Virus record (IMG/VR): IMGVR_UViG_3300028410_000746
DNA: 64,000 nt
From: a virus
Taxonomy: Duplodnaviria; Caudoviricetes
Direction: 5' to 3' (one strand)
Of the stretch, positions 13,745 to 40,449 are shown in pieces. Below the pieces are notes generated by a model. It did no database searches. It was not told the origin of the DNA and was given only the letters and a program-made list of their open reading frames with translations. Made by a program: the position numbers and the translations under genes. Position 1 is the stretch's first letter; each line of letters starts with the position of its first letter.

Positions 13745-14092
13745 TTACGTCTCGTCCGTGGTCTCCGAGCGCTCCCGGATCTTCGAGCGATCCCTCAGGT
13801 GCTCCAGGGACTCCTTGAGCATTTCGTCTTCCTCCCTCCTACGCCACAGGGCCTCCACGAGCGCCTCGTCATCCGACCTCACGTACTTCAGAAGCTCCAT
13901 GAGTACCGCGTCACCCTCTCTCAGATGCCCCAGAGCCGCCCCAATCGCGACATCGCGCGCCACCATGTCCTCCAAGGCCGCCACAATCACCGCGTTGCGA
14001 TCCTCGTAGTCCTCGGAGGCGACCCTCTCATCCATCCTCTCCAAGGACCTCTGGTCCATCTCCACTTCAATCTCCACCATCTCTTCGCTCAT
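13745..14092 (-). CDS. ribbon-helix-helix (CopG-like) DNA-binding protein with coiled coil
   Basis: IEVEMDQRSLERMDERV...DRNAVIVAAL pattern; GGAGG RBS. Confidence 0.55.
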   Translation of the reverse strand: MSEEMVEIEVEMDQRSLERMDERVASEDYEDRNAVIVAALEDMVARDVAIGAALGHLREGDAVLMELLKYVRSDDEALVEALWRRREEDEMLKESLEHLRDRSKIRERSETTDET

Positions 14093-14154: not shown

Positions 14155-16305
14155 TTAATAGAGACAGGCGGCGGAGGGGTCCCGGCTGCACAGGTCCAGC
14201 ACGGTGGACACGGGCATGTAGACGTTGTTGAAGAAACGGAAGCCCGCGCCTACTTGAGACAGCGCTCCCAGACCCGTGACTACGGTGAAGCCCGTCTGCT
14301 CGACGAAGACCTCTCCGCTGACGCTGGTAAGAGAGTCGAAGCCTCCAAGCTCTCCCCGGATGCCGTAGCCTCCCACGATCCTTTGCAGGCGGAGGTGGAG
14401 TGAGCCGGTGATGGTCGTGAGGTTGTTCAGGCTGCTAAAGTCGTCCGTACCCATCCTGGACGCCAGGACCGCAGACCCGTTGATGCGCTCAAGGGCGTCG
14501 AAAGCGCATGTGCCGTTGTTGCACCACGTGAAGTCTGCAAGACCCAGCACCAAGCCGCCTACTACACGCACGCTCGACAGGGCGCTTGCGTCCGGAACGT
14601 TGGGCGGGAGGACCGTAGTGTTGAGAGAAGGGAAGAAGACCCCACCCTCCACGCGCTCCAGGTTCTCAAAGCCAGTCAGGGCTCGGATCGTCGTCTGAGC
14701 GTTCCGACCCGAGCCCCGGAAGTGTAGCGACCCGCCAATGTGCGTGAGGGGTAGCGCTGTGGGGTGGATGTAGTCCAAATCGAAGCGGGTCTGCTCGCAC
14801 GTTACCGGGTAGCCCTGGTAGTCGATGAACGTCTCCGTGAACGAGTTGCCCGTGCGAATATGGACGTCTCCGGAGACCGAGCAGTAGCTGGTAATGTCCA
14901 CCAGCGGAGCAAAGGAAGAGTGGCACGTGAAGTCCCCCTCTACCCAGACCGCCTCACCCGTTGGCGAAGACCAATCCGAGGAGTCCCTCACCGTGAGGAG
15001 GGTCACATCTCCCACGAACTGCTCACACAGGCGGGGTCGAGCGGCTACCTGCTGACACTGCGTCAAGCACACTGCCGGGCAGTCTTCCCAGTCCTCACAC
15101 TGAGGAGCGCTGGCGACGTTCGCTGCTCCTTCATCACACTGCTCCGAACCCTGTACGATTCCATCACCACAGGTCCCTCCTTGCTCGGACACGAAGCCCG
15201 AGCAGTCCTGCGCACACACCGTGCAGCTCCCGTTGTACGGAGCCGCACATCCCGAAGCATTCGCAACCCCGTTATCACACTGCTCCGAGCCCTCCAGGAT
15301 GCCATCTCCACACACTCCAAAGGGTCGACACGTCTGTCCATCTCCCACATACCCGCCATCGCAGGTGCAGGTGAAGCTGCCAAAGCTGTTCAGACACGTA
15401 GCGTTTGCCCCGCAAGGGTCGTTCAAGCACTCGTCCACGTCCAGGCAAACGTATCGCCCTTGCGCCTGAGTCGCGTCTCGGTTCTCACACACCGTACCCG
15501 ACTGGCAGGTATCCTCTCCAAAGACACACTCATCGCGATCGTAGCACACGAAGCGTACACCAAGAGGGCCCGTCGCGTCCTTGTTGGCACACAGCGCGCC
15601 CTCGACGCAGGCTCCCGGCTGGAGGCACTCATTCACGTCATCGCACGCGTACCCTCCATTCTCCTCCCGGCACGACTGACCAGGGCCGCATGGGTTACCC
15701 GAACACTCCGGCACGTCACGACACGTCTGACCGTCTCCCGTATATCCAGGGTCACACGCACACTCGAAGCTGCCCACCGTGTTGGTACACGTCGCGTTCG
15801 CCCCACAAGGATCGTCCACACACTCATCCGCGTCCACACAGCCGCCCCCCAGCTCCAGGTAGCCATCATCACACGTACACTGAGTACAACCGGGCCCCGC
15901 CTCACACTGCTCGGGACCGCCGAGGACACCATCGCCACACACGTTCCCCCGCACGGTCTCAAGCTGGCACGAGAGGCCGCAAAACTCACAGCTTGCGCCG
16001 TACGCCGGATCACACAGCTCCCCAACCCTCATGTCACACTCTTCACCCGCTTCCAGGACTCCATTGCCGCATACCGGATCAGACTCCACGTCGGGCTCCA
16101 CGTCGGGCTCTACATCCAACTCCGCGTCGGGGTCCTCCCCCAGGTCAGGCTCGTCTGCATCAGGCTCGTCTCCCAGATCAGGGCCTGCGTCCGCAGAAAC
16201 CTCCGAACCGTCGCGAAGATCCGGAGGGGTGTCCGAACGGATACAACCCGTGAAGGTCATGAAAGCCACGAGGAGCGCGGCGAGGTGAATTCCGAAGCGG
16301 TACAT
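14155..16305 (-). CDS. lipoprotein with Ca-binding EGF repeats, myxobacterial Cys-rich repeats and C-terminal receptor-L/LRR-like solenoid
   Basis: Lipobox FTG-C after hydrophobic stretch; DECVDDPCGANATCTNTVGSFECACDPGY; CGDG(I/V)..G.E.CD repeats; L..L..I.G.L repeats. Confidence 0.88.
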   Translation of the reverse strand: MYRFGIHLAALLVAFMTFTGCIRSDTPPDLRDGSEVSADAGPDLGDEPDADEPDLGEDPDAELDVEPDVEPDVESDPVCGNGVLEAGEECDMRVGELCDPAYGASCEFCGLSCQLETVRGNVCGDGVLGGPEQCEAGPGCTQCTCDDGYLELGGGCVDADECVDDPCGANATCTNTVGSFECACDPGYTGDGQTCRDVPECSGNPCGPGQSCREENGGYACDDVNECLQPGACVEGALCANKDATGPLGVRFVCYDRDECVFGEDTCQSGTVCENRDATQAQGRYVCLDVDECLNDPCGANATCLNSFGSFTCTCDGGYVGDGQTCRPFGVCGDGILEGSEQCDNGVANASGCAAPYNGSCTVCAQDCSGFVSEQGGTCGDGIVQGSEQCDEGAANVASAPQCEDWEDCPAVCLTQCQQVAARPRLCEQFVGDVTLLTVRDSSDWSSPTGEAVWVEGDFTCHSSFAPLVDITSYCSVSGDVHIRTGNSFTETFIDYQGYPVTCEQTRFDLDYIHPTALPLTHIGGSLHFRGSGRNAQTTIRALTGFENLERVEGGVFFPSLNTTVLPPNVPDASALSSVRVVGGLVLGLADFTWCNNGTCAFDALERINGSAVLASRMGTDDFSSLNNLTTITGSLHLRLQRIVGGYGIRGELGGFDSLTSVSGEVFVEQTGFTVVTGLGALSQVGAGFRFFNNVYMPVSTVLDLCSRDPSAACLY

Positions 16306-16540
16306 ATGCTCTCCGTGGGGTTCAGGGTCCTTGACAAGAGAGGGCTCGCGCCTTCTCTCACCTCCCGTGTACCACAAGGAGAACACTCCGTAGAAAAAAT
16401 CCCCCATTTTACGACCCCACAACCGCCAATGCAAGATCTTGAGCGCGCGTATGACGACCAATAAGACCTCTTGACAGGTAGACACAACAAGGCCCCTCAC
16501 CACGAATGCGATGAGAGGCCTTGAAGGAAGAAAACCGTGC

Positions 16541-18175
<1,635 letters not shown>

Positions 18176-27605: not shown

Positions 27606-28871
27606 TTAGGAATCTTGCCTCGCCTGCACGAGCAGTCCCTCGGCCACAGCCGTCATGGGGTTGCTCGCGCGACGAACCTCGCTGATCTCCAGCGGGAAAC
27701 GCTTGCGGTGCTTCTTGTCAAAGACAGACTCGAAGACCTCGATGAAGCCGTCGGGGAGGCTCGTACCTCCAGAGACGACGATCGGGATGGCCGTCAGCTC
27801 CGTGTCGGACTGCTCGGCCTTGAACTGCTTGGCGATGTGCTTGAGCGCGTAGTTAATCAGGGACTTGTAGTACACGACCAAAGCCTCCTGCTCGCGGCCC
27901 ACAGGGGCAGCCAAGTTGATGCCCTTCTCCTTGATCGTACACATGCGCGAGGCCGTCGTGCCGAGAGCCTGCGCCGACTGTGCGTCAATCCAGTCGCCGC
28001 CGCGCGCGAGCGAGAACTCCATGATCGGAAGGGTCTGGTAGGACAGGGCGATGTTGACCATGCCCGAGCCGAAGCTGATGCCGATACCCGAGAAGGTCTC
28101 CTTGGCACACTCAGCGTAGATGATGGCCATCGCCTCGTTGCCCGAGATCGCCGTGTACCCCAGCTCCTCCAGGATGCGCTCGAAAGCCGCCTCGTGGTAA
28201 ACCACGTCCCTCTCCGGAGCATCCACCGGGGACGCCGGGATCGAGTAGTAGCACACCTCGTCCTCGACCTGCGGCTTGCCCAGTACGCCCTCGATCATGA
28301 TGGAGAGCACCTCCAACGCATCATGCTCCGACGCCGAGATGAGGCCTTGCGCCAGCGGACGGCGCGCCTCACGCTTGAAGAGGTTGGCGAGCTGAAGCGC
28401 GTCATCACCCAGGATCAGGATGTGGTCCTCGTACTCCACGAAGGTCGTGCCTCCGAGCTGGAGCTTGGCCTTGGCGTCCAGGTCCAGGTCCAGGAACGCA
28501 TCGCGCGTTCGGCTGGTGACCACGCCCTCTTCGGACTGCACCGCGCTCACGATGTTCATGGTCCCGATGTCCAGACCCTTGCCAAAGAAGATCTTGGCAG
28601 AGGTGGGCGCAGAGGTGGGCGGGATGAGCGTGGTCTTTCTGTCTTCGGTCATGTCTGTACTCCCAAGTTTCTCGGGGGCCGGAGTGTCATCACCCGGCTC
28701 CGCTGTATGGTAGACCTGAGGCTCGGTCAAAAGCTCAAGGTCCCACTCACCCATGCGACGTCGCACAGTTGAGGAGCTGCACCCTAGCACAGCTTGGATC
28801 TCTCGTACAGTCATTCCTTGTTTGACGAGACGCGTCAAGCGTTGTTTGGTGATGTCCAGCTTTTTAGCCAT
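27606..28871 (-). CDS. actin-like ATPase (MreB/MamK/ParM superfamily) with N-terminal HTH extension
   Basis: Phosphate-1 GLDIGTMN, connect ISGNEAMAII, phosphate-2 GISFGSGMVN, adenosine VSGGTS, NPMTAVAEG; HTH GMTVREIQAVLGCSSSTVRRR. Confidence 0.9.
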   Translation of the reverse strand: MAKKLDITKQRLTRLVKQGMTVREIQAVLGCSSSTVRRRMGEWDLELLTEPQVYHTAEPGDDTPAPEKLGSTDMTEDRKTTLIPPTSAPTSAKIFFGKGLDIGTMNIVSAVQSEEGVVTSRTRDAFLDLDLDAKAKLQLGGTTFVEYEDHILILGDDALQLANLFKREARRPLAQGLISASEHDALEVLSIMIEGVLGKPQVEDEVCYYSIPASPVDAPERDVVYHEAAFERILEELGYTAISGNEAMAIIYAECAKETFSGIGISFGSGMVNIALSYQTLPIMEFSLARGGDWIDAQSAQALGTTASRMCTIKEKGINLAAPVGREQEALVVYYKSLINYALKHIAKQFKAEQSDTELTAIPIVVSGGTSLPDGFIEVFESVFDKKHRKRFPLEISEVRRASNPMTAVAEGLLVQARQDS

Positions 28872-34615: not shown

Positions 34616-35425
34616 TCAGACCGACTCGGCCTCGTAGCGGCCGTTGCCCATGTTGCGAATGACGTCTCGGCTGGTCTGGGGTATCTCGACCAGGATCGAA
34701 CGAACATAGTTGCTGCGGTTGTACTCATCGTCATAGTAGTAGTCGTCGTCAAACGAGCTACGCGCCTCCTTGTAGACGTCGACACGCACGACATCACCCG
34801 CCTCAACCCGACGGAGCACCTCTTCAAGGCCACCGCGACGAACCGAAGGTGCGCCCTTGAGCGCATCCCAGCCTCGGAAGGCCTCAGCCGCATGCGTGTA
34901 GTCCGCGCCGCGCAGCTTCTCCTTCTGGAGAACGTAGTACACGAACTTGGCTGCATGACTCGCACCCGCCATGCGTACAGACGCCTCGCGCCAGCCGTCT
35001 CGCGTCTTCTCGATCTTGCCCTTGCTCGTCATGGGTATTTCGACCGTAATGTTCTGCTTGAGATCACCACGCACCATCTCATCCTCATCCTCATCGTACT
35101 CACTGAAGTACACGAACACGTCCACCACCGTACCCGGAGAAGCCGAGGTGAGCGCCTCATCCAGGGGCTCAATGTCGGTGATGCCGTTCATAGACGACAT
35201 GTTACGCTTCCAGGAGTCCCAGTCCTTGTAGACGATGGCCTCGTGAAGGTACTTCTTGCCCGACGCGCGCTCCTTGCGTAGAGCTTGCCGAACGATCTTG
35301 GCTGCGTACGAAGCAGCAGCGGCAGTACGCGTAGACGCCAGGGAGGCGATCACAGGCTTGAGGTGAGGACGCAGCTCAGGCTTGGTTTTGCCGAGGCGAA
35401 TGAGACGGGCTTTGAGATCAGACAT
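34616..35425 (-). CDS. hypothetical protein with N-terminal LIRL..PELR motif and internal duplication
   Basis: MSDLKARLIRLGKTKPELRPHLKPVIASL; two related ~100-aa halves ending V.VDV....D......VEIP.TS. Confidence 0.75.
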   Translation of the reverse strand: MSDLKARLIRLGKTKPELRPHLKPVIASLASTRTAAAASYAAKIVRQALRKERASGKKYLHEAIVYKDWDSWKRNMSSMNGITDIEPLDEALTSASPGTVVDVFVYFSEYDEDEDEMVRGDLKQNITVEIPMTSKGKIEKTRDGWREASVRMAGASHAAKFVYYVLQKEKLRGADYTHAAEAFRGWDALKGAPSVRRGGLEEVLRRVEAGDVVRVDVYKEARSSFDDDYYYDDEYNRSNYVRSILVEIPQTSRDVIRNMGNGRYEAESV

Positions 35426-36772: not shown

Positions 36773-36801
36773 ACCCTACCTCAAGAGAAGGGGGACGTCA
36801 A
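36773..36801 (-). promoter_or_regulatory. promoter predicted to drive the CRISPR mini-array
   Basis: TTGACG-N17-TAGGGT, about 160 nt upstream of first repeat. Confidence 0.6.
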
Positions 36802-36825
36802 GCCTCTGTTGCCAAAAACTCTCCC

Positions 36826-36856
36826 AGGCGCAGGCGGACGACGCCCGCCTGCGTCT
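36826..36856 (-). terminator. hairpin terminating the fractured neck gene
   Basis: AGACGCAGGCGG/CCGCCTGCGCCT stem 22 nt after stop, then GGGAGAGTTTTT. Confidence 0.6.
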
Positions 36857-36877
36857 GGATCTCACCCTCCCACAGGG

Positions 36878-37525
36878 TCAGATTCCCATGAATTTACGGG
36901 GGGTTAGCGTACCGTTACCTGTAATCGGACCAAAACTCGACCTCACGCCCAGGCCATAGCGGCTCTGTTTCAGGCCACGCATGTACTTGACCGTACGAGC
37001 CTTGCCGTCGGTCATCATCTTCTCGAACTGCTGCTCGGCGTTGCCCTTCAAGGACTCGTACTTGGAACTGCGCTCGATGTCCAGATTGATACCGCCAATG
37101 GAGTACGAGTTATGCGCCAGGATGCCGTTGGTGAGTACGAAGTTCTCATCTCCAGGCACACTCAAGTCATAGGTGTATACACGAGCAAGGGCTTCCGTGT
37201 GCGCCGTCAAACGAGATCCCGAAGCCTGAGAAGAACCCTCCACACATACCGCCAAGGCATCCCCTACCTTGAGATCCTGAGCCAAAGCTTCACGTACCGC
37301 CCCATCTGGCCGGTACTCAAAGACCGAGTGATCCCCCGTACACGTCACAACCCTGCCCTGCGCATCCTCCAGCCGCACCATCGGCTTGTGTGGTGTATGG
37401 TGACGCATCACATCAGAGACCCGAGACCAACGTACACGCCCCGTAGAAGTCTCGACGCTACGAACCTCCAAAGAACCCTCTCGCAAGGCGTTCAGGAGCC
37501 ACTCTCGCTCATTATCGCTCAACAT
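36878..37525 (-). CDS. split intein C-half (139 aa) fused to C-extein (76 aa) of neck-region protein
   Basis: Block B TCTGDHSV, block F VYTYDLSVPGDENFV, block G NGILAHN then +1 Ser (SYSIGG). Confidence 0.92.
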   Translation of the reverse strand: MLSDNEREWLLNALREGSLEVRSVETSTGRVRWSRVSDVMRHHTPHKPMVRLEDAQGRVVTCTGDHSVFEYRPDGAVREALAQDLKVGDALAVCVEGSSQASGSRLTAHTEALARVYTYDLSVPGDENFVLTNGILAHNSYSIGGINLDIERSSKYESLKGNAEQQFEKMMTDGKARTVKYMRGLKQSRYGLGVRSSFGPITGNGTLTPRKFMGI

Positions 37526-38463
37526 ACCTGCACCTTATTGAAGAATCGTATAGCCCGGTCCAAACACCCGTCGTAATCGCGCTGCAACTCATGCTCCCAC
37601 AGCACCAACACCTCCCAACCACCTCGCGCAAGGTACGCCAACTTGGCGAGGTCTCTTCTGCGATTGGAGGGAGGCCCCTCCAGACCACATAACAAACAGG
37701 AGTGCCAGTATCAGCCATGTATCTCCAACACCTTGCGCATCTCCGGCTGCACCTCATCACAGGTGTAGTACCCAATAGCGTACTCCGTCTCCAAGTCCTG
37801 CACCCCATTGCGAACCAATGCCGCCTTAAAGTTCAGATGAAGCTGTGAGGTGGCCTGAATAAACGTGCGCGCGTGCGCGGCTGACTGTCGAGACTGCTCC
37901 GGGTGTGACGCATGCCAGGACAAGACAGCCTCGCGCAAATCACCGCCCTCCTGCCACCGCTCCAGGGATTGAGCGGATACGGCCTGCCGCCGCCCCTCCG
38001 TCTGGTTCAATGCGATGAACTCAGCCCTGCGCGTACCCTCTTGCATCCGCTCCCGCGAAGTCTGAGCAATCCGCAGGCGAGTGTGTACCCCTTCAGGAGA
38101 CTGAAAATGCTCTAACATGGCCCGTGACTGGTGAGCCTTCTGTTCTGGGCTCTTCCGTCGACGTACAGTAGTCGTAGCACACGCCAGAGGCGCTTTCGGG
38201 TACTTCGTACGATACCCGTCCAAATCAAGCGAGGCGCATGCCTGCAAGTGTAGGGATGTAATCGCAGCCACCCAGGCCCCACAACAACGACACACTACGT
38301 AATGCGTACCCTCCACCAACGCGTCTAGCGACGCCACAGACACACACGTTCGGCGCCCGGCCTTACGCGCTTGAACGTCACCGCTCTCGATCAAGGTAAC
38401 CAAATGCCGTGCGTTCAGTCCATGCCTGAGTTGCGCCTGTCGTTTTGATATCCACTCACTCAT
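37519..38463 (-). pseudogene. Vsr/DUF559-like homing endonuclease interrupted by one in-frame TGA (37711-37713)
   Basis: ...CDEVQPEMRKVLEIHG*YWHSCLLCG...RDLAKLAYLARGGWEVLVLWEHEL; same frame continues to stop 37519-37521, overlapping the IntC start. Confidence 0.85.
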
Positions 38464-39226
38464 GAGCCTCAGCTTCCACCTGGAGGGCATACAGCTCTTC
38501 CATCGACACCTGAATCTCCTGCCCTCCAGACACACGTACCGTAACCAAGGTCTCCCCGGCAAGCGAGAATTCGTCCGCAACCCAATTGAACGTGAGCGCC
38601 ATCGCAGCCTGAGCCATGGCCCCCGTGATGATCCACACGATCCAATTTCGCTGAGCGGACACCATCATGTCCATGCTCAGGTAACCCGTAGCCGGGGGGT
38701 AGGAGTTGATGAGCATGGTCGCCTGATCCATGTACTCAAGCAGCTCCTCGTCCTCCCAGATGTAGGCGAACACGCGATTGAACTGGTTCACGGTCCCCGA
38801 CGAGGTGGGAGGCCTGAAGTGGTAGTTGCGGTCAGGGTTGTTGTCCCTCAAACGGATGCGGATGCGGCGGATCATATCGAGCTGCGTCGCCGTGTAACGC
38901 GTCGTCAGGAGCTGGGAGGGTTCCACGATCTGGAACTCTTGAAGGAGCGTGTTCTCAGGATCACCCGACAGCTCCACGAGGGTCCAACGAATACGATAGA
39001 GACCGAACGCTACGAACTCGGGCACCTGGAAGTGGGCGTAGTATTGACCCACGCCCACGCGCACGGGCACGTGAGCCGGAGGTCCAATGAGGACCTCGCT
39101 GCCCGTCGTGACGTCGTAGAGCGCGTATGTGATGGAGAACGGGTCGACAGGCACGTCCAAGCTGTCCAGAACCTCGATGGCGAGGTCCGTAGGCGTCGTG
39201 ATAGACCCTCGTGTCAGCTCAAGCAT
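38456..39226 (-). CDS. N-extein of neck/head-tail adaptor protein fused to 36-aa split intein N-half
   Basis: LRDNNP...WEDEEL...A..LINSYPPAT adaptor-like core; ends ADEF|SLAGETLVTV... (block A starting with Ser at 38566). Confidence 0.85.
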   Translation of the reverse strand: MLELTRGSITTPTDLAIEVLDSLDVPVDPFSITYALYDVTTGSEVLIGPPAHVPVRVGVGQYYAHFQVPEFVAFGLYRIRWTLVELSGDPENTLLQEFQIVEPSQLLTTRYTATQLDMIRRIRIRLRDNNPDRNYHFRPPTSSGTVNQFNRVFAYIWEDEELLEYMDQATMLINSYPPATGYLSMDMMVSAQRNWIVWIITGAMAQAAMALTFNWVADEFSLAGETLVTVRVSGGQEIQVSMEELYALQVEAEAHE

Positions 39227-39285
39227 GCGAACTCCGGGAAAGAAGGGGAAGCCGCCCCCACGGGAGGCGGCCCCTCGCGCGGCAC

Positions 39286-40449
39286 TCAGAAGTGCTCACG
39301 GAGGAAGTTGGAGAACGTCCACGCGACCTCTTCAAGATCGGACGGAAGGTCCTCCAGCATACGATAATGTGTACGGTCTTCGAGGCCTTCCACGAGGCTC
39401 TCAGCCGTGGAAGCGAGGTCCTCACTCATCTTGACAACCTTGGCCAAAGACGACTTGGAGAGGGCGGAGTAGGCTCCGCGACGGAGAAGGTCGAGCCCTC
39501 GCATGAGGTCCTTGACGCCATCGACATCACGCTCAAGCTTCTTGAGGTCCCGGCCATAAGCCTTCAAGATCCGGACCAAGGTGCCCTCGACGACATCCTC
39601 GTACGCGCCCTGAATGCGGGACTCCTTCTCAGCCTCTACCGATGCCGAGAAGTCGTTCTGCATCAAGGTCTGGATTCGATCGAAGGCGCGCTTGACCTCG
39701 GCAGTCTTGGCGACCGCCTTGAGAGCCTTGGAGGGGTCCGAGAACATGGGGCTGAACTCGCGCGGAGTGCCTCCATCACCGGAACACTCCATGTAGACCT
39801 CATAGGAGTACGTGCCCATCTTCTCCAGCATCTCCTCGACGAAGAGCGGAGCGGACGCGTCCATGTCAACGACGTCAGCCGGCTTGGGAGTCACAGGCAC
39901 GAGGTCCAGCTCAGGAGCAGCCTGATCACGAGGGTTGAGGAGAGCGTCTTCCAGGCCTCGCTGGTTCTGACGCAGGCTCTCAGCGCGATCACGCTGGGCC
40001 TGCTGATCCTGCTTCGTGACGAACGGATGCCCCTTGAGGTAATAATTGTCCCATGCCACCATGTCCGCATTGGCAGGATCGAGAGCCATCTCACGGAGCA
40101 CGAGCTGCACGCGGTTGGCGAAATCCTGGAAGGCCTGAAGCGTGCTCCGGCTCACGTCCCCCGTGAACCCCTTGCGGTACTCGTCCGGGAAGTTGTTCTG
40201 GAACTCCAGGTCGAGGAGACCTTCCACAAGCTGCCCACTGAGGCCGGGCCCCATATCCCCACGCACGTCTGCGCTGTACGCCACACGAAGCGCTCCGTAC
40301 GCGCTAGCGTGCAGCCTTCGACGCTGGGCCGAACGAGTAAGCACCTCCTGACGAGTCACCGTCAGGGAGGCGATCACCGGCTTGAGGTGTGCACGCAGCT
40401 TCGGAGTTGAGCTGCCAATGCGAATGAGACGTTGCTTTAGAGTGCGCAT
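39286..40449 (-). CDS. hypothetical helical protein with N-terminal LIRI..P.LR motif
   Basis: MRTLKQRLIRIGSSTPKLRAHLKPVIASL. Confidence 0.75.
   Translation of the reverse strand: MRTLKQRLIRIGSSTPKLRAHLKPVIASLTVTRQEVLTRSAQRRRLHASAYGALRVAYSADVRGDMGPGLSGQLVEGLLDLEFQNNFPDEYRKGFTGDVSRSTLQAFQDFANRVQLVLREMALDPANADMVAWDNYYLKGHPFVTKQDQQAQRDRAESLRQNQRGLEDALLNPRDQAAPELDLVPVTPKPADVVDMDASAPLFVEEMLEKMGTYSYEVYMECSGDGGTPREFSPMFSDPSKALKAVAKTAEVKRAFDRIQTLMQNDFSASVEAEKESRIQGAYEDVVEGTLVRILKAYGRDLKKLERDVDGVKDLMRGLDLLRRGAYSALSKSSLAKVVKMSEDLASTAESLVEGLEDRTHYRMLEDLPSDLEEVAWTFSNFLREHF

Follow-up and report, generated by a model that had tools for sequence, protein, structure and literature searches.

A fractured gene for a portal adaptor-like phage protein, probably rejoined by protein trans-splicing, with an apparently inactivated homing endonuclease gene between its halves

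How might a phage obtain one structural protein from a gene that is broken into two open reading frames (ORFs), with a third gene lodged between them? This question is raised by a locus in a 64,000-nucleotide stretch of phage DNA, hereafter the window, from the IMG/VR virus record IMGVR_UViG_3300028410_000746. The 127.7-kb record originates from a lake-water metagenome, has an estimated completeness of about 29% (CheckV), and carries a provirus flag; relatives sit on contigs of 400–465 kb. We conclude that the locus is very probably a fractured gene for an adaptor-like protein, the two products of which are joined by trans-splicing between intein halves, and that the endonuclease gene separating them is most likely an inactivated copy. 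The anatomy of the locus, the homologues, the one-piece inteins, the motifs, and the distribution of states at the insertion site are all observed, and they form the basis of this conclusion.

The N-half ORF (38456–39226, minus strand) encodes 256 residues, which run to NWVADEF, continue as SLAGETLVTV...EAHE, and then meet a stop codon. The C-half ORF (36878–37525, minus strand) encodes 215 residues, namely 139 intein residues followed by SYSIGGINLD and the remainder of the protein. A nuclease gene fills the space between them and is coupled to both: its ATG overlaps the stop codon of the N-half (ATGAGTGA at 38456–38463), and its final TGA overlaps the start codon of the C-half (ATGTTGA at 37519–37525). 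A preliminary description of this DNA had reported the two ORFs, their terminal residues, and the start/stop overlaps; both halves were re-read in the DNA and agree exactly, and both overlaps are present. It had also placed a Vsr-like endonuclease between the halves. The gene is indeed there and its profile matches Vsr, but an in-frame TGA at 37711–37713 had gone unmentioned. The gene layout is confirmed, and it is not a product of chance, given that other N-halves end in the same kind of fragment at this site and that uninterrupted homologues cross the junction.

If the halves are rejoined, intein-less relatives ought to be contiguous across the junction, a point on which the preliminary description had staked its reading, and such relatives were found. 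The N-half as query retrieved 952 relatives, many of them 296–297 residues long and reading NW(I/V)ADEF-D-YSIGG without a break. At least 130 uninterrupted homologues cross the junction, where they read ADEF-(D/S/G)-YSIGG, and one of these, P0006, has ADEFSYSIGG, which is exactly the predicted ligation product. The window N-extein (220 residues) aligns with residues 1–220 of the homologues P0004–P0006 at 74–79% identity, and the C-extein (76 residues) aligns with their last 76 residues at 83–88% identity, both without gaps. The predicted spliced product of 220 + 76 = 296 residues has the length anticipated earlier (about 296 residues) and is collinear with the homologues of 296–297 residues. 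Among the empty alleles, Asp stands between ADEF and YSIGG in 79 of 134, and Ser or Thr in 28 of 134. The latter could mark places from which an intein was lost precisely, or sites that an intein may newly invade.

We then inspected the two intein fragments, which had previously been recognized from their motifs. The Pfam family Intein_splicing (PF14890) matches the C-half with an expectation (E) value of 5e-14 and 52.8 bits against a cut-off of 35.8. Residues 1–145 of the C-half match solved inteins, including 4o1s (E 2e-8), the polymerase intein 9hth (E 1.5e-7), and 6rpp (the three ranging from E 2e-8 to 1e-6), as well as the CDC21 intein, MjaTFIIB, and PI-PkoII; the PolB16 intein matches the window C-fragment (IntC) weakly (E 0.003). 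The set of class 1 catalytic residues is complete: Ser1, the block B residues T63-G-D-H66, the Asp of block F (YDLSV), the terminal His-Asn (AHN139), and Ser+1. It is kept in all aligned relatives. By its sequence, the intein is thus assigned to class 1 (HINT) with Ser1/Ser+1 chemistry. Upstream of block B, R41-H42 is a candidate NX-motif pair; the His is found in ten of ten aligned inteins, and an Arg or Lys precedes it in eight of ten. As for association of the halves, a modelled complex of IntC (C-half residues 1–146) with the N-fragment (IntN, N-half residues 214–256) scored 0.83, a mark that 51 of 78 solved complexes and 2 of 108 mismatched pairs reached in calibration; the best of three controls scored 0.02. 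The modelling supports binding between the two intein halves, with the reservation that part of the score may stem from solved inteins that the model has memorized. The positions of all features are collected in Table 1.

Table 1. Components of the fractured gene and of the nuclease gene inside it, with positions in the window
Feature	Position	Strand	Description
N-extein, residues 1–220 of adaptor-like protein	38567..39226	-	Ig/MG2-like domain and first part of predicted helical adaptor domain; ends ...NWVADEF
Intein N-fragment, 36 residues	38459..38566	-	Ser1, block A (SLAGETLV), short helix (EELY); stop codon 38456-38458
Homing endonuclease gene, 5' part, 250 codons	37714..38463	-	Weak HTH-like match, Cys/His zinc-finger-like motif, start of Vsr-like nuclease core; 42% identity to intact 319-residue P0123
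In-frame TGA in nuclease gene	37711..37713	-	At invariant Cys of GCYWH motif
Homing endonuclease gene, 3' part, 63 codons, same frame	37522..37710	-	Rest of Vsr/DUF559 core (YWHSC...RD...GWEVL..WEHE); final TGA 37519-37521
Intein C-fragment, 139 residues	37109..37525	-	R41 H42, TGDH, YDLSVPGDENF, ILAHN; Pfam and solved-intein matches
C-extein, 76 residues	36881..37108	-	Ser+1, SYSIGGINLD...; beta-hairpin, last helix, flexible tail; stop codon 36878-36880

Immediately upstream of the N-half, a strong GC-rich hairpin (12 pairs) and, after it, a T-rich tract occupy 39248–39274 (minus strand), between the stop codon of the upstream gene (39286) and the start of the N-half (39226). Given this hairpin and tract, the fractured gene may start its own transcription unit or be attenuated.

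The window allele is one of several states of the same intein site. In public data, at least 48 other split N-halves end in the same kind of intein fragment at the same site. Ser starts the intein in all 48, and the N-fragments have 30–66 residues with a median of 35. An exhaustive search further recovered one-piece mini-inteins of 157–194 residues at this site, carried by relatives of 456–495 residues, and Ser1 and Ser/Thr+1 are found in 12 of 12 of the one-piece inteins. The window IntN and IntC are collinear with these mini-inteins, IntN aligning with their first ~36 residues. The break point coincides with a loop of variable length directly after the short helix that follows block A. Hence, the nuclease gene sits between blocks A and B, which is the 'atypical' split position; the usual one lies between blocks B and F (PMC2677866; PMC13014065). 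Three related loci (L001, L003, and L005) comprise an N-half, an intact nuclease gene of 319–321 residues, and a C-half. In a fourth locus, L004 (3501–4921), the halves are 32 nucleotides apart with no nuclease gene, and a Shine-Dalgarno-like AGGGG precedes the C-half. Judged from these sequences, the fractured layout is widespread in the host-protein family and not unique to this phage.

The distribution of these states was examined in a tree of 184 N-exteins (maximum likelihood, quick build, midpoint-rooted, cluster representatives only). It contains 131 empty alleles, 41 split ones, and 12 with a one-piece intein, all interleaved, and its well-supported branches require no fewer than 20 changes of state. 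The window protein is sister to an empty allele; both belong to a fully supported group that comprises three empty alleles and two split ones. Compared with L001, the window has exteins of 76% and 86% identity, intein fragments of 42% and 53%, and a nuclease of 42%. These patterns speak for a mobile element with a history of repeated gain and loss, and the data fit repeated gain and repeated loss alike. A protein of 568 residues from another metagenome, P0172, contains two one-piece inteins. The first is at the ADEF/YSIGG site, and the second, with Cys1/Cys+1, is at a second conserved motif, LLRDN/CPDRNY. Homing endonucleases typically target conserved sites (PMC2677866).

What, then, is the protein that hosts this intein? 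The preliminary description had placed it in the neck of the virion, a reading that is supported by its predicted fold. For the uninterrupted homologue P0006, which is 74% identical to the window protein, an AlphaFold2 model was built from an alignment of 58 sequences; its mean pLDDT (predicted local distance difference test) is 82.8. The model is composed of an immunoglobulin (Ig)/MG2-like sandwich (residues 1–100), a helical domain with a β-hairpin (residues ~112–260), and a C-terminal tail of low confidence. When the model is compared exhaustively with 48,161 solved chains, the N-terminal domain matches macroglobulin and Ig-like domains, and residues 112–270 match almost exclusively chains of portal-tail, tail, neck, and portal-adaptor complexes, with Z values of 8–10.4. 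Specifically, the matches include Pa223 (9nwi_A, Z 10.4, root mean square deviation 3.4, 108 residues aligned), T4 gp13 (9lu4_D, Z 10.1, root mean square deviation 3.8, 109 aligned), GP4 (8jov_2, Z 10.1), and cyanophage A4 (9k09_d, Z 10.0). Others are from the KHP30 and SU10 tail complexes, Shigella phages B2 and Moo19, VP1, Carin-1, the neck of phage 812, HRP29, P-SCSP1u, Kp7, and the PhiM1 portal-adaptor complex. As this helical domain matches portal adaptors, T4 gp13 among them, the neck assignment gains support, and we regard the host protein as a portal (head-to-tail) adaptor-like protein with good, though not full, confidence, the Z values being middling for a helical domain. Its place in the virion would then be on the portal. 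In the model, the intein site falls between the long helix (residues 193–218) and the hairpin (residues 221–230), within the most conserved motif of the family, NW.ADEF /.YSIGG. The family's other most conserved motif, LRDN/.PDRNY, is the second intein site of P0172.

Other searches gave less. Foldseek ranks the R4C portal-adaptor complex first among PDB entries (E 1.8e-3); the PDB rows are weak and mostly concern the Ig-like domain, and the adaptor matches emerged with the exhaustive aligner. A profile of the extein family matches in the PDB the MG2-like N-terminal domain only, and weakly. In BFVD, gp165 of the jumbo Bacillus phage G is among the matches. In the Atlas, the closest clusters that bear a name carry the SU10_adaptor and PhiTE adaptor families, with scores of 0.87–0.88, which serve as leads only. 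PHROGs searched with ten neighbouring genes and Pfam searched with ten other large ORFs of the window returned almost nothing, so the gene context could not confirm a neck module.

Several points weigh against the adaptor assignment. It relies on the predicted structure of a homologue; neither the N-half nor the uninterrupted homologue hit a Pfam or PHROG family; and at Z values of about 10, as the comparison tool itself notes, helical domains can match through a common arrangement. The protein might instead have another role in the virion, as a decoration, baseplate, or fibre-anchor protein. Its N-terminal domain, an Ig/MG2-like sandwich of a generic kind, has further matches among baseplate and BppU-like proteins, and neither the Z values nor any sequence family settle the role of the rest. 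We nevertheless consider such a role unlikely. The partners of residues 112–270 come from unrelated phages and nearly all belong to the portal-to-tail region, the Foldseek and Atlas searches lead to adaptors as well, and the low-confidence C-terminal tail would fit adaptor arms that become ordered only on the portal.

With the host protein taken as adaptor-like, we turn to the gene between its halves. Its Vsr-like character, proposed earlier, is borne out by a profile of four homologues, which matches Vsr (1cw0, E 5.4e-6; 1vsr, E 1.6e-5) and the EDxHD homing endonuclease I-Bth0305I (3r3p, E 1.7e-4). The 3' part matches DUF559 (E 0.0034) and the endonuclease family phrog_13076 (E 9e-5). Against the DUF559 cut-off of 20.6 bits, the intact relative scores 21.8 and the window copy 16.2. 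The N-terminal part has a weak helix-turn-helix match and a Cys/His zinc-finger-like motif (weak Ros/MucR match). On these profiles, the nuclease is Vsr-like. It aligns with the intact 319-residue L001 protein over its whole length at 42% identity.

The reading frame of the nuclease is broken by the TGA after 250 codons, with 63 codons following. This TGA aligns with the Cys of a GCYWH motif, which is invariant in three of three aligned intact homologues and itself aligns with the Cys of the Vsr motif HGCFWH, a zinc ligand in Vsr. The homologues are open over 314–331 residues, and all six database homologues, the yield of a word-based search, are of full length. TGA is also the usual stop codon of this phage, terminating 80 of 98 long coding-strand ORFs, among them both intein-half genes. 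The 127.7-kb record contains no tRNA with anticodon UCA and no tRNA-Sec, and past the TGA the RNA shows no more folding than shuffled sequence does (z −0.86). Taken together, the stop usage, the missing UCA tRNA, the unremarkable RNA fold, and the full-length homologues argue that this TGA is a real stop. Most likely, a single base changed recently (TGC or TGT to TGA), and the resulting nonsense codon killed the homing endonuclease. A separately made contig assembly of a lake-water DNA run, probably the source of the window, is identical over 36800–39300 and has the same TGA, which bears out the assembly without being independent evidence. This is the only DNA run that holds the region, and it is stored as contigs, in which minority variants are invisible; no RNA run carrying the region was found.

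Some observations speak against the loss of the nuclease. Beyond the TGA, identity to the intact homologue still amounts to 47% by a hand count on the alignment, the 63 codons have stayed in frame, and their overlap with the C-half start is kept. These observations would fit a nuclease that still functions, with low or conditional expression, the TGA being read through, suppressed by an unsampled tRNA, or decoded as selenocysteine. A TGA in place of a Cys codon is the classic Cys/Sec pattern, the phage does have a suppressor tRNA, though for TAG, and an opal suppressor tRNA could lie in the part of the genome beyond the ~29% in the record. We hold a functional nuclease to be quite improbable. 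TGA ends most long coding-strand ORFs here, a Cys and not a stop occupies the position in the intact homologues, and one base change from TGC or TGT suffices to create the TGA. Recoding, including as selenocysteine, was likewise judged unlikely from the tRNA scan, the RNA fold, and the stop usage. The nonsense codon, in any case, concerns the present mobility of the nuclease and not the fractured-gene layout.

The suppressor tRNA is an observation in its own right. It has anticodon CUA, is therefore of the amber type (tRNA-Pyl according to ARAGORN), and is encoded at complement 13973–14046 of the record (G000:C1), outside the window. TAG terminates four of the 98 long coding-strand ORFs, compared with 80 for TGA, a possible sign that TAG is avoided or partly recoded in this phage.

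How the parts would work together can be proposed as follows. A class 1 intein with Ser1/Ser+1 would have been inserted at NW.ADEF /.YSIGG of an adaptor-like virion protein of about 296 residues. A free-standing gene for a Vsr-like homing endonuclease would have lodged in the variable intein loop just after block A, with the consequence that the host gene now consists of two ORFs. The two products would associate via the intein halves, a 36-residue N-fragment and a 139-residue C-fragment, and trans-splicing through oxyester intermediates would most likely yield the 296-residue adaptor reading ...ADEF-SYSIGG.... The endonuclease gene in the window would be a recently inactivated copy, representing one stage of the homing cycle. 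That the halves associate without splicing, either as a non-covalent two-chain adaptor or as products of a dead gene in a defective phage, is compatible with the record, which is incomplete and flagged as a provirus, but we regard it as very improbable, since all known class 1 splicing residues are present and conserved over the 48 split and 12 one-piece alleles of diverged phages, an unspliced intein complex of ~175 residues between the long helix and the β-hairpin would lodge in the core of the domain fold, and both exteins are 74–88% identical to intact homologues.

Trans-splicing of the adaptor might even have become a fixed step of morphogenesis. We offer tentatively, and with considerable doubt, that adaptor trans-splicing is required for joining head and tail throughout a clade of huge (~400 kb) phages, as a step possibly relevant to timing and not as a transient scar of a parasite. 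Such a split state would have outlived its nuclease, for which the nonsense copy in the window and the nuclease-free locus L004 are the reasons.

The layout had been described earlier as being of a known kind, and it does correspond to the fractured genes reported by Dassa, London, Stoddard, Schueler-Furman, and Pietrokovski (2009; PMC2677866). As in those genes, two intein-half ORFs flank a free-standing Vsr-like endonuclease ORF on the same strand, in DNA of phage or metagenome origin. Their hosts are gp41 helicase, IMPDH, DnaE, NrdA, NrdJ, DNA ligase, large terminase, and one protein of unknown function. Different from them, the host in the window is a predicted adaptor-like virion protein, and the nuclease gene has a nonsense codon. 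Within the 2009 set, only the terminase intein is broken after motif N1 (PMC2677866). The window intein resembles the split terminase inteins, namely the GOS terminase locus (Dassa et al., 2009) and AceL-TerL (Thiel et al., 2014, as cited in PMC13014065), in that the break comes right after N1/block A, and in having a short N-fragment and a long C-fragment that holds all other motifs. The N-fragments of natural atypically split inteins have 15–37 residues (PMC13014065). The terminase inteins differ in being cysteine-dependent and located in TerL, according to PMC13014065, whereas the window intein has Ser1/Ser+1 and another host protein.

A closer parallel in chemistry is the PolB16 OarG intein (Pasch et al., 2023; PMC10189870; 8cpo/8cpn), which also combines an atypical natural split with Ser1/Ser+1 oxyester chemistry and has non-catalytic Cys residues in its C-fragment. 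It possesses an Arg/Lys-His 'NX' motif upstream of block B, to which we liken R41-H42 of the window, the correspondence with PolB16 His68 being drawn by published description (PMC10189870) and not by structural superposition. The N-fragment of PolB16 OarG has 15 residues as opposed to 36, its host is PolB from a sheep-gut metagenome, and the sequences are distant. PolB16 OarG is described as the only naturally split intein that lacks catalytic cysteines and has a short N-fragment (PMC13014065; PMC10189870), and natural candidates of its type are said to be lacking in a 2026 paper (PMC13014065). A survey of actinobacteriophages (bioRxiv 10.1101/2025.01.02.630785) reports one-piece inteins in portal, minor capsid, and tape measure genes, some with Vsr-like endonucleases. 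Unlike the window intein, those are contiguous; the sole split case is in another host gene, and no adaptor or neck host is listed. A literature search of incomplete coverage found no published split intein in an adaptor or neck gene. With respect to the host protein, the predicted helical domain and β-hairpin of residues 112–270 are shared with the portal adaptors T4 gp13 (9lu4), Pa223 (9nwi), GP4 (8jov), SU10 (7z47), and the phage 812 neck (8q01). In contrast to these, the window family has an additional N-terminal Ig/MG2-like domain, no match to a Pfam adaptor family, and only 5–16% sequence identity.

If trans-splicing takes place as proposed, the virion would owe one of its structural parts to it, in about 12 copies per particle by analogy with solved portal adaptors. 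The published fractured genes encode enzymes of DNA metabolism and packaging (PMC2677866). One insertion site also displays nearly all stages of the homing cycle side by side: empty, one-piece mini-intein, split with a live nuclease gene, split with what is probably a freshly killed nuclease gene (the window), and split with no nuclease gene. Naturally split inteins with a short N-fragment and no catalytic cysteines are in demand but scarce. The family supplies at least 48 natural variants, and, as a by-product if the trans-splicing reading is true, it would provide dozens of natural Ser1/Ser+1 atypically split inteins with N-fragments of 30–40 residues.

Aside from the fractured gene, several neighbouring features were observed. 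A near-identical leader of ~30 residues, of the form MSDLKARLIRLG..KPELRPHLKPVIASL, starts five proteins in the 127.7-kb record, with sites at 35362, 40386, 41118, and 49584 of the window and near 124808 of G000:C1, outside the window. One leader-bearing gene (39286–40449) is directly upstream of the fractured gene, and another is ~1.5 kb downstream. As a guess, the leader is a capsid-targeting or protease-processed propeptide. About 260 nucleotides downstream of the C-half gene, the segment 36526–36620 holds two near-identical 34-nucleotide direct repeats, 61 nucleotides apart, which resemble a type I-E CRISPR (clustered regularly interspaced short palindromic repeats) mini-array in both sequence and spacing. 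Further away, the gene at 27606–28871 (minus strand) encodes a 421-residue protein with a match to Pfam Volactin, an archaeal actin homologue (E 5e-78), and an N-terminal HTH_23 domain; it is syntenic in the relatives L001 and L002. The gene at 14155–16674 (minus strand) encodes an 839-residue protein with calcium-binding EGF domains (EGF_CA, E 2.6e-17), which are unusual for a phage.

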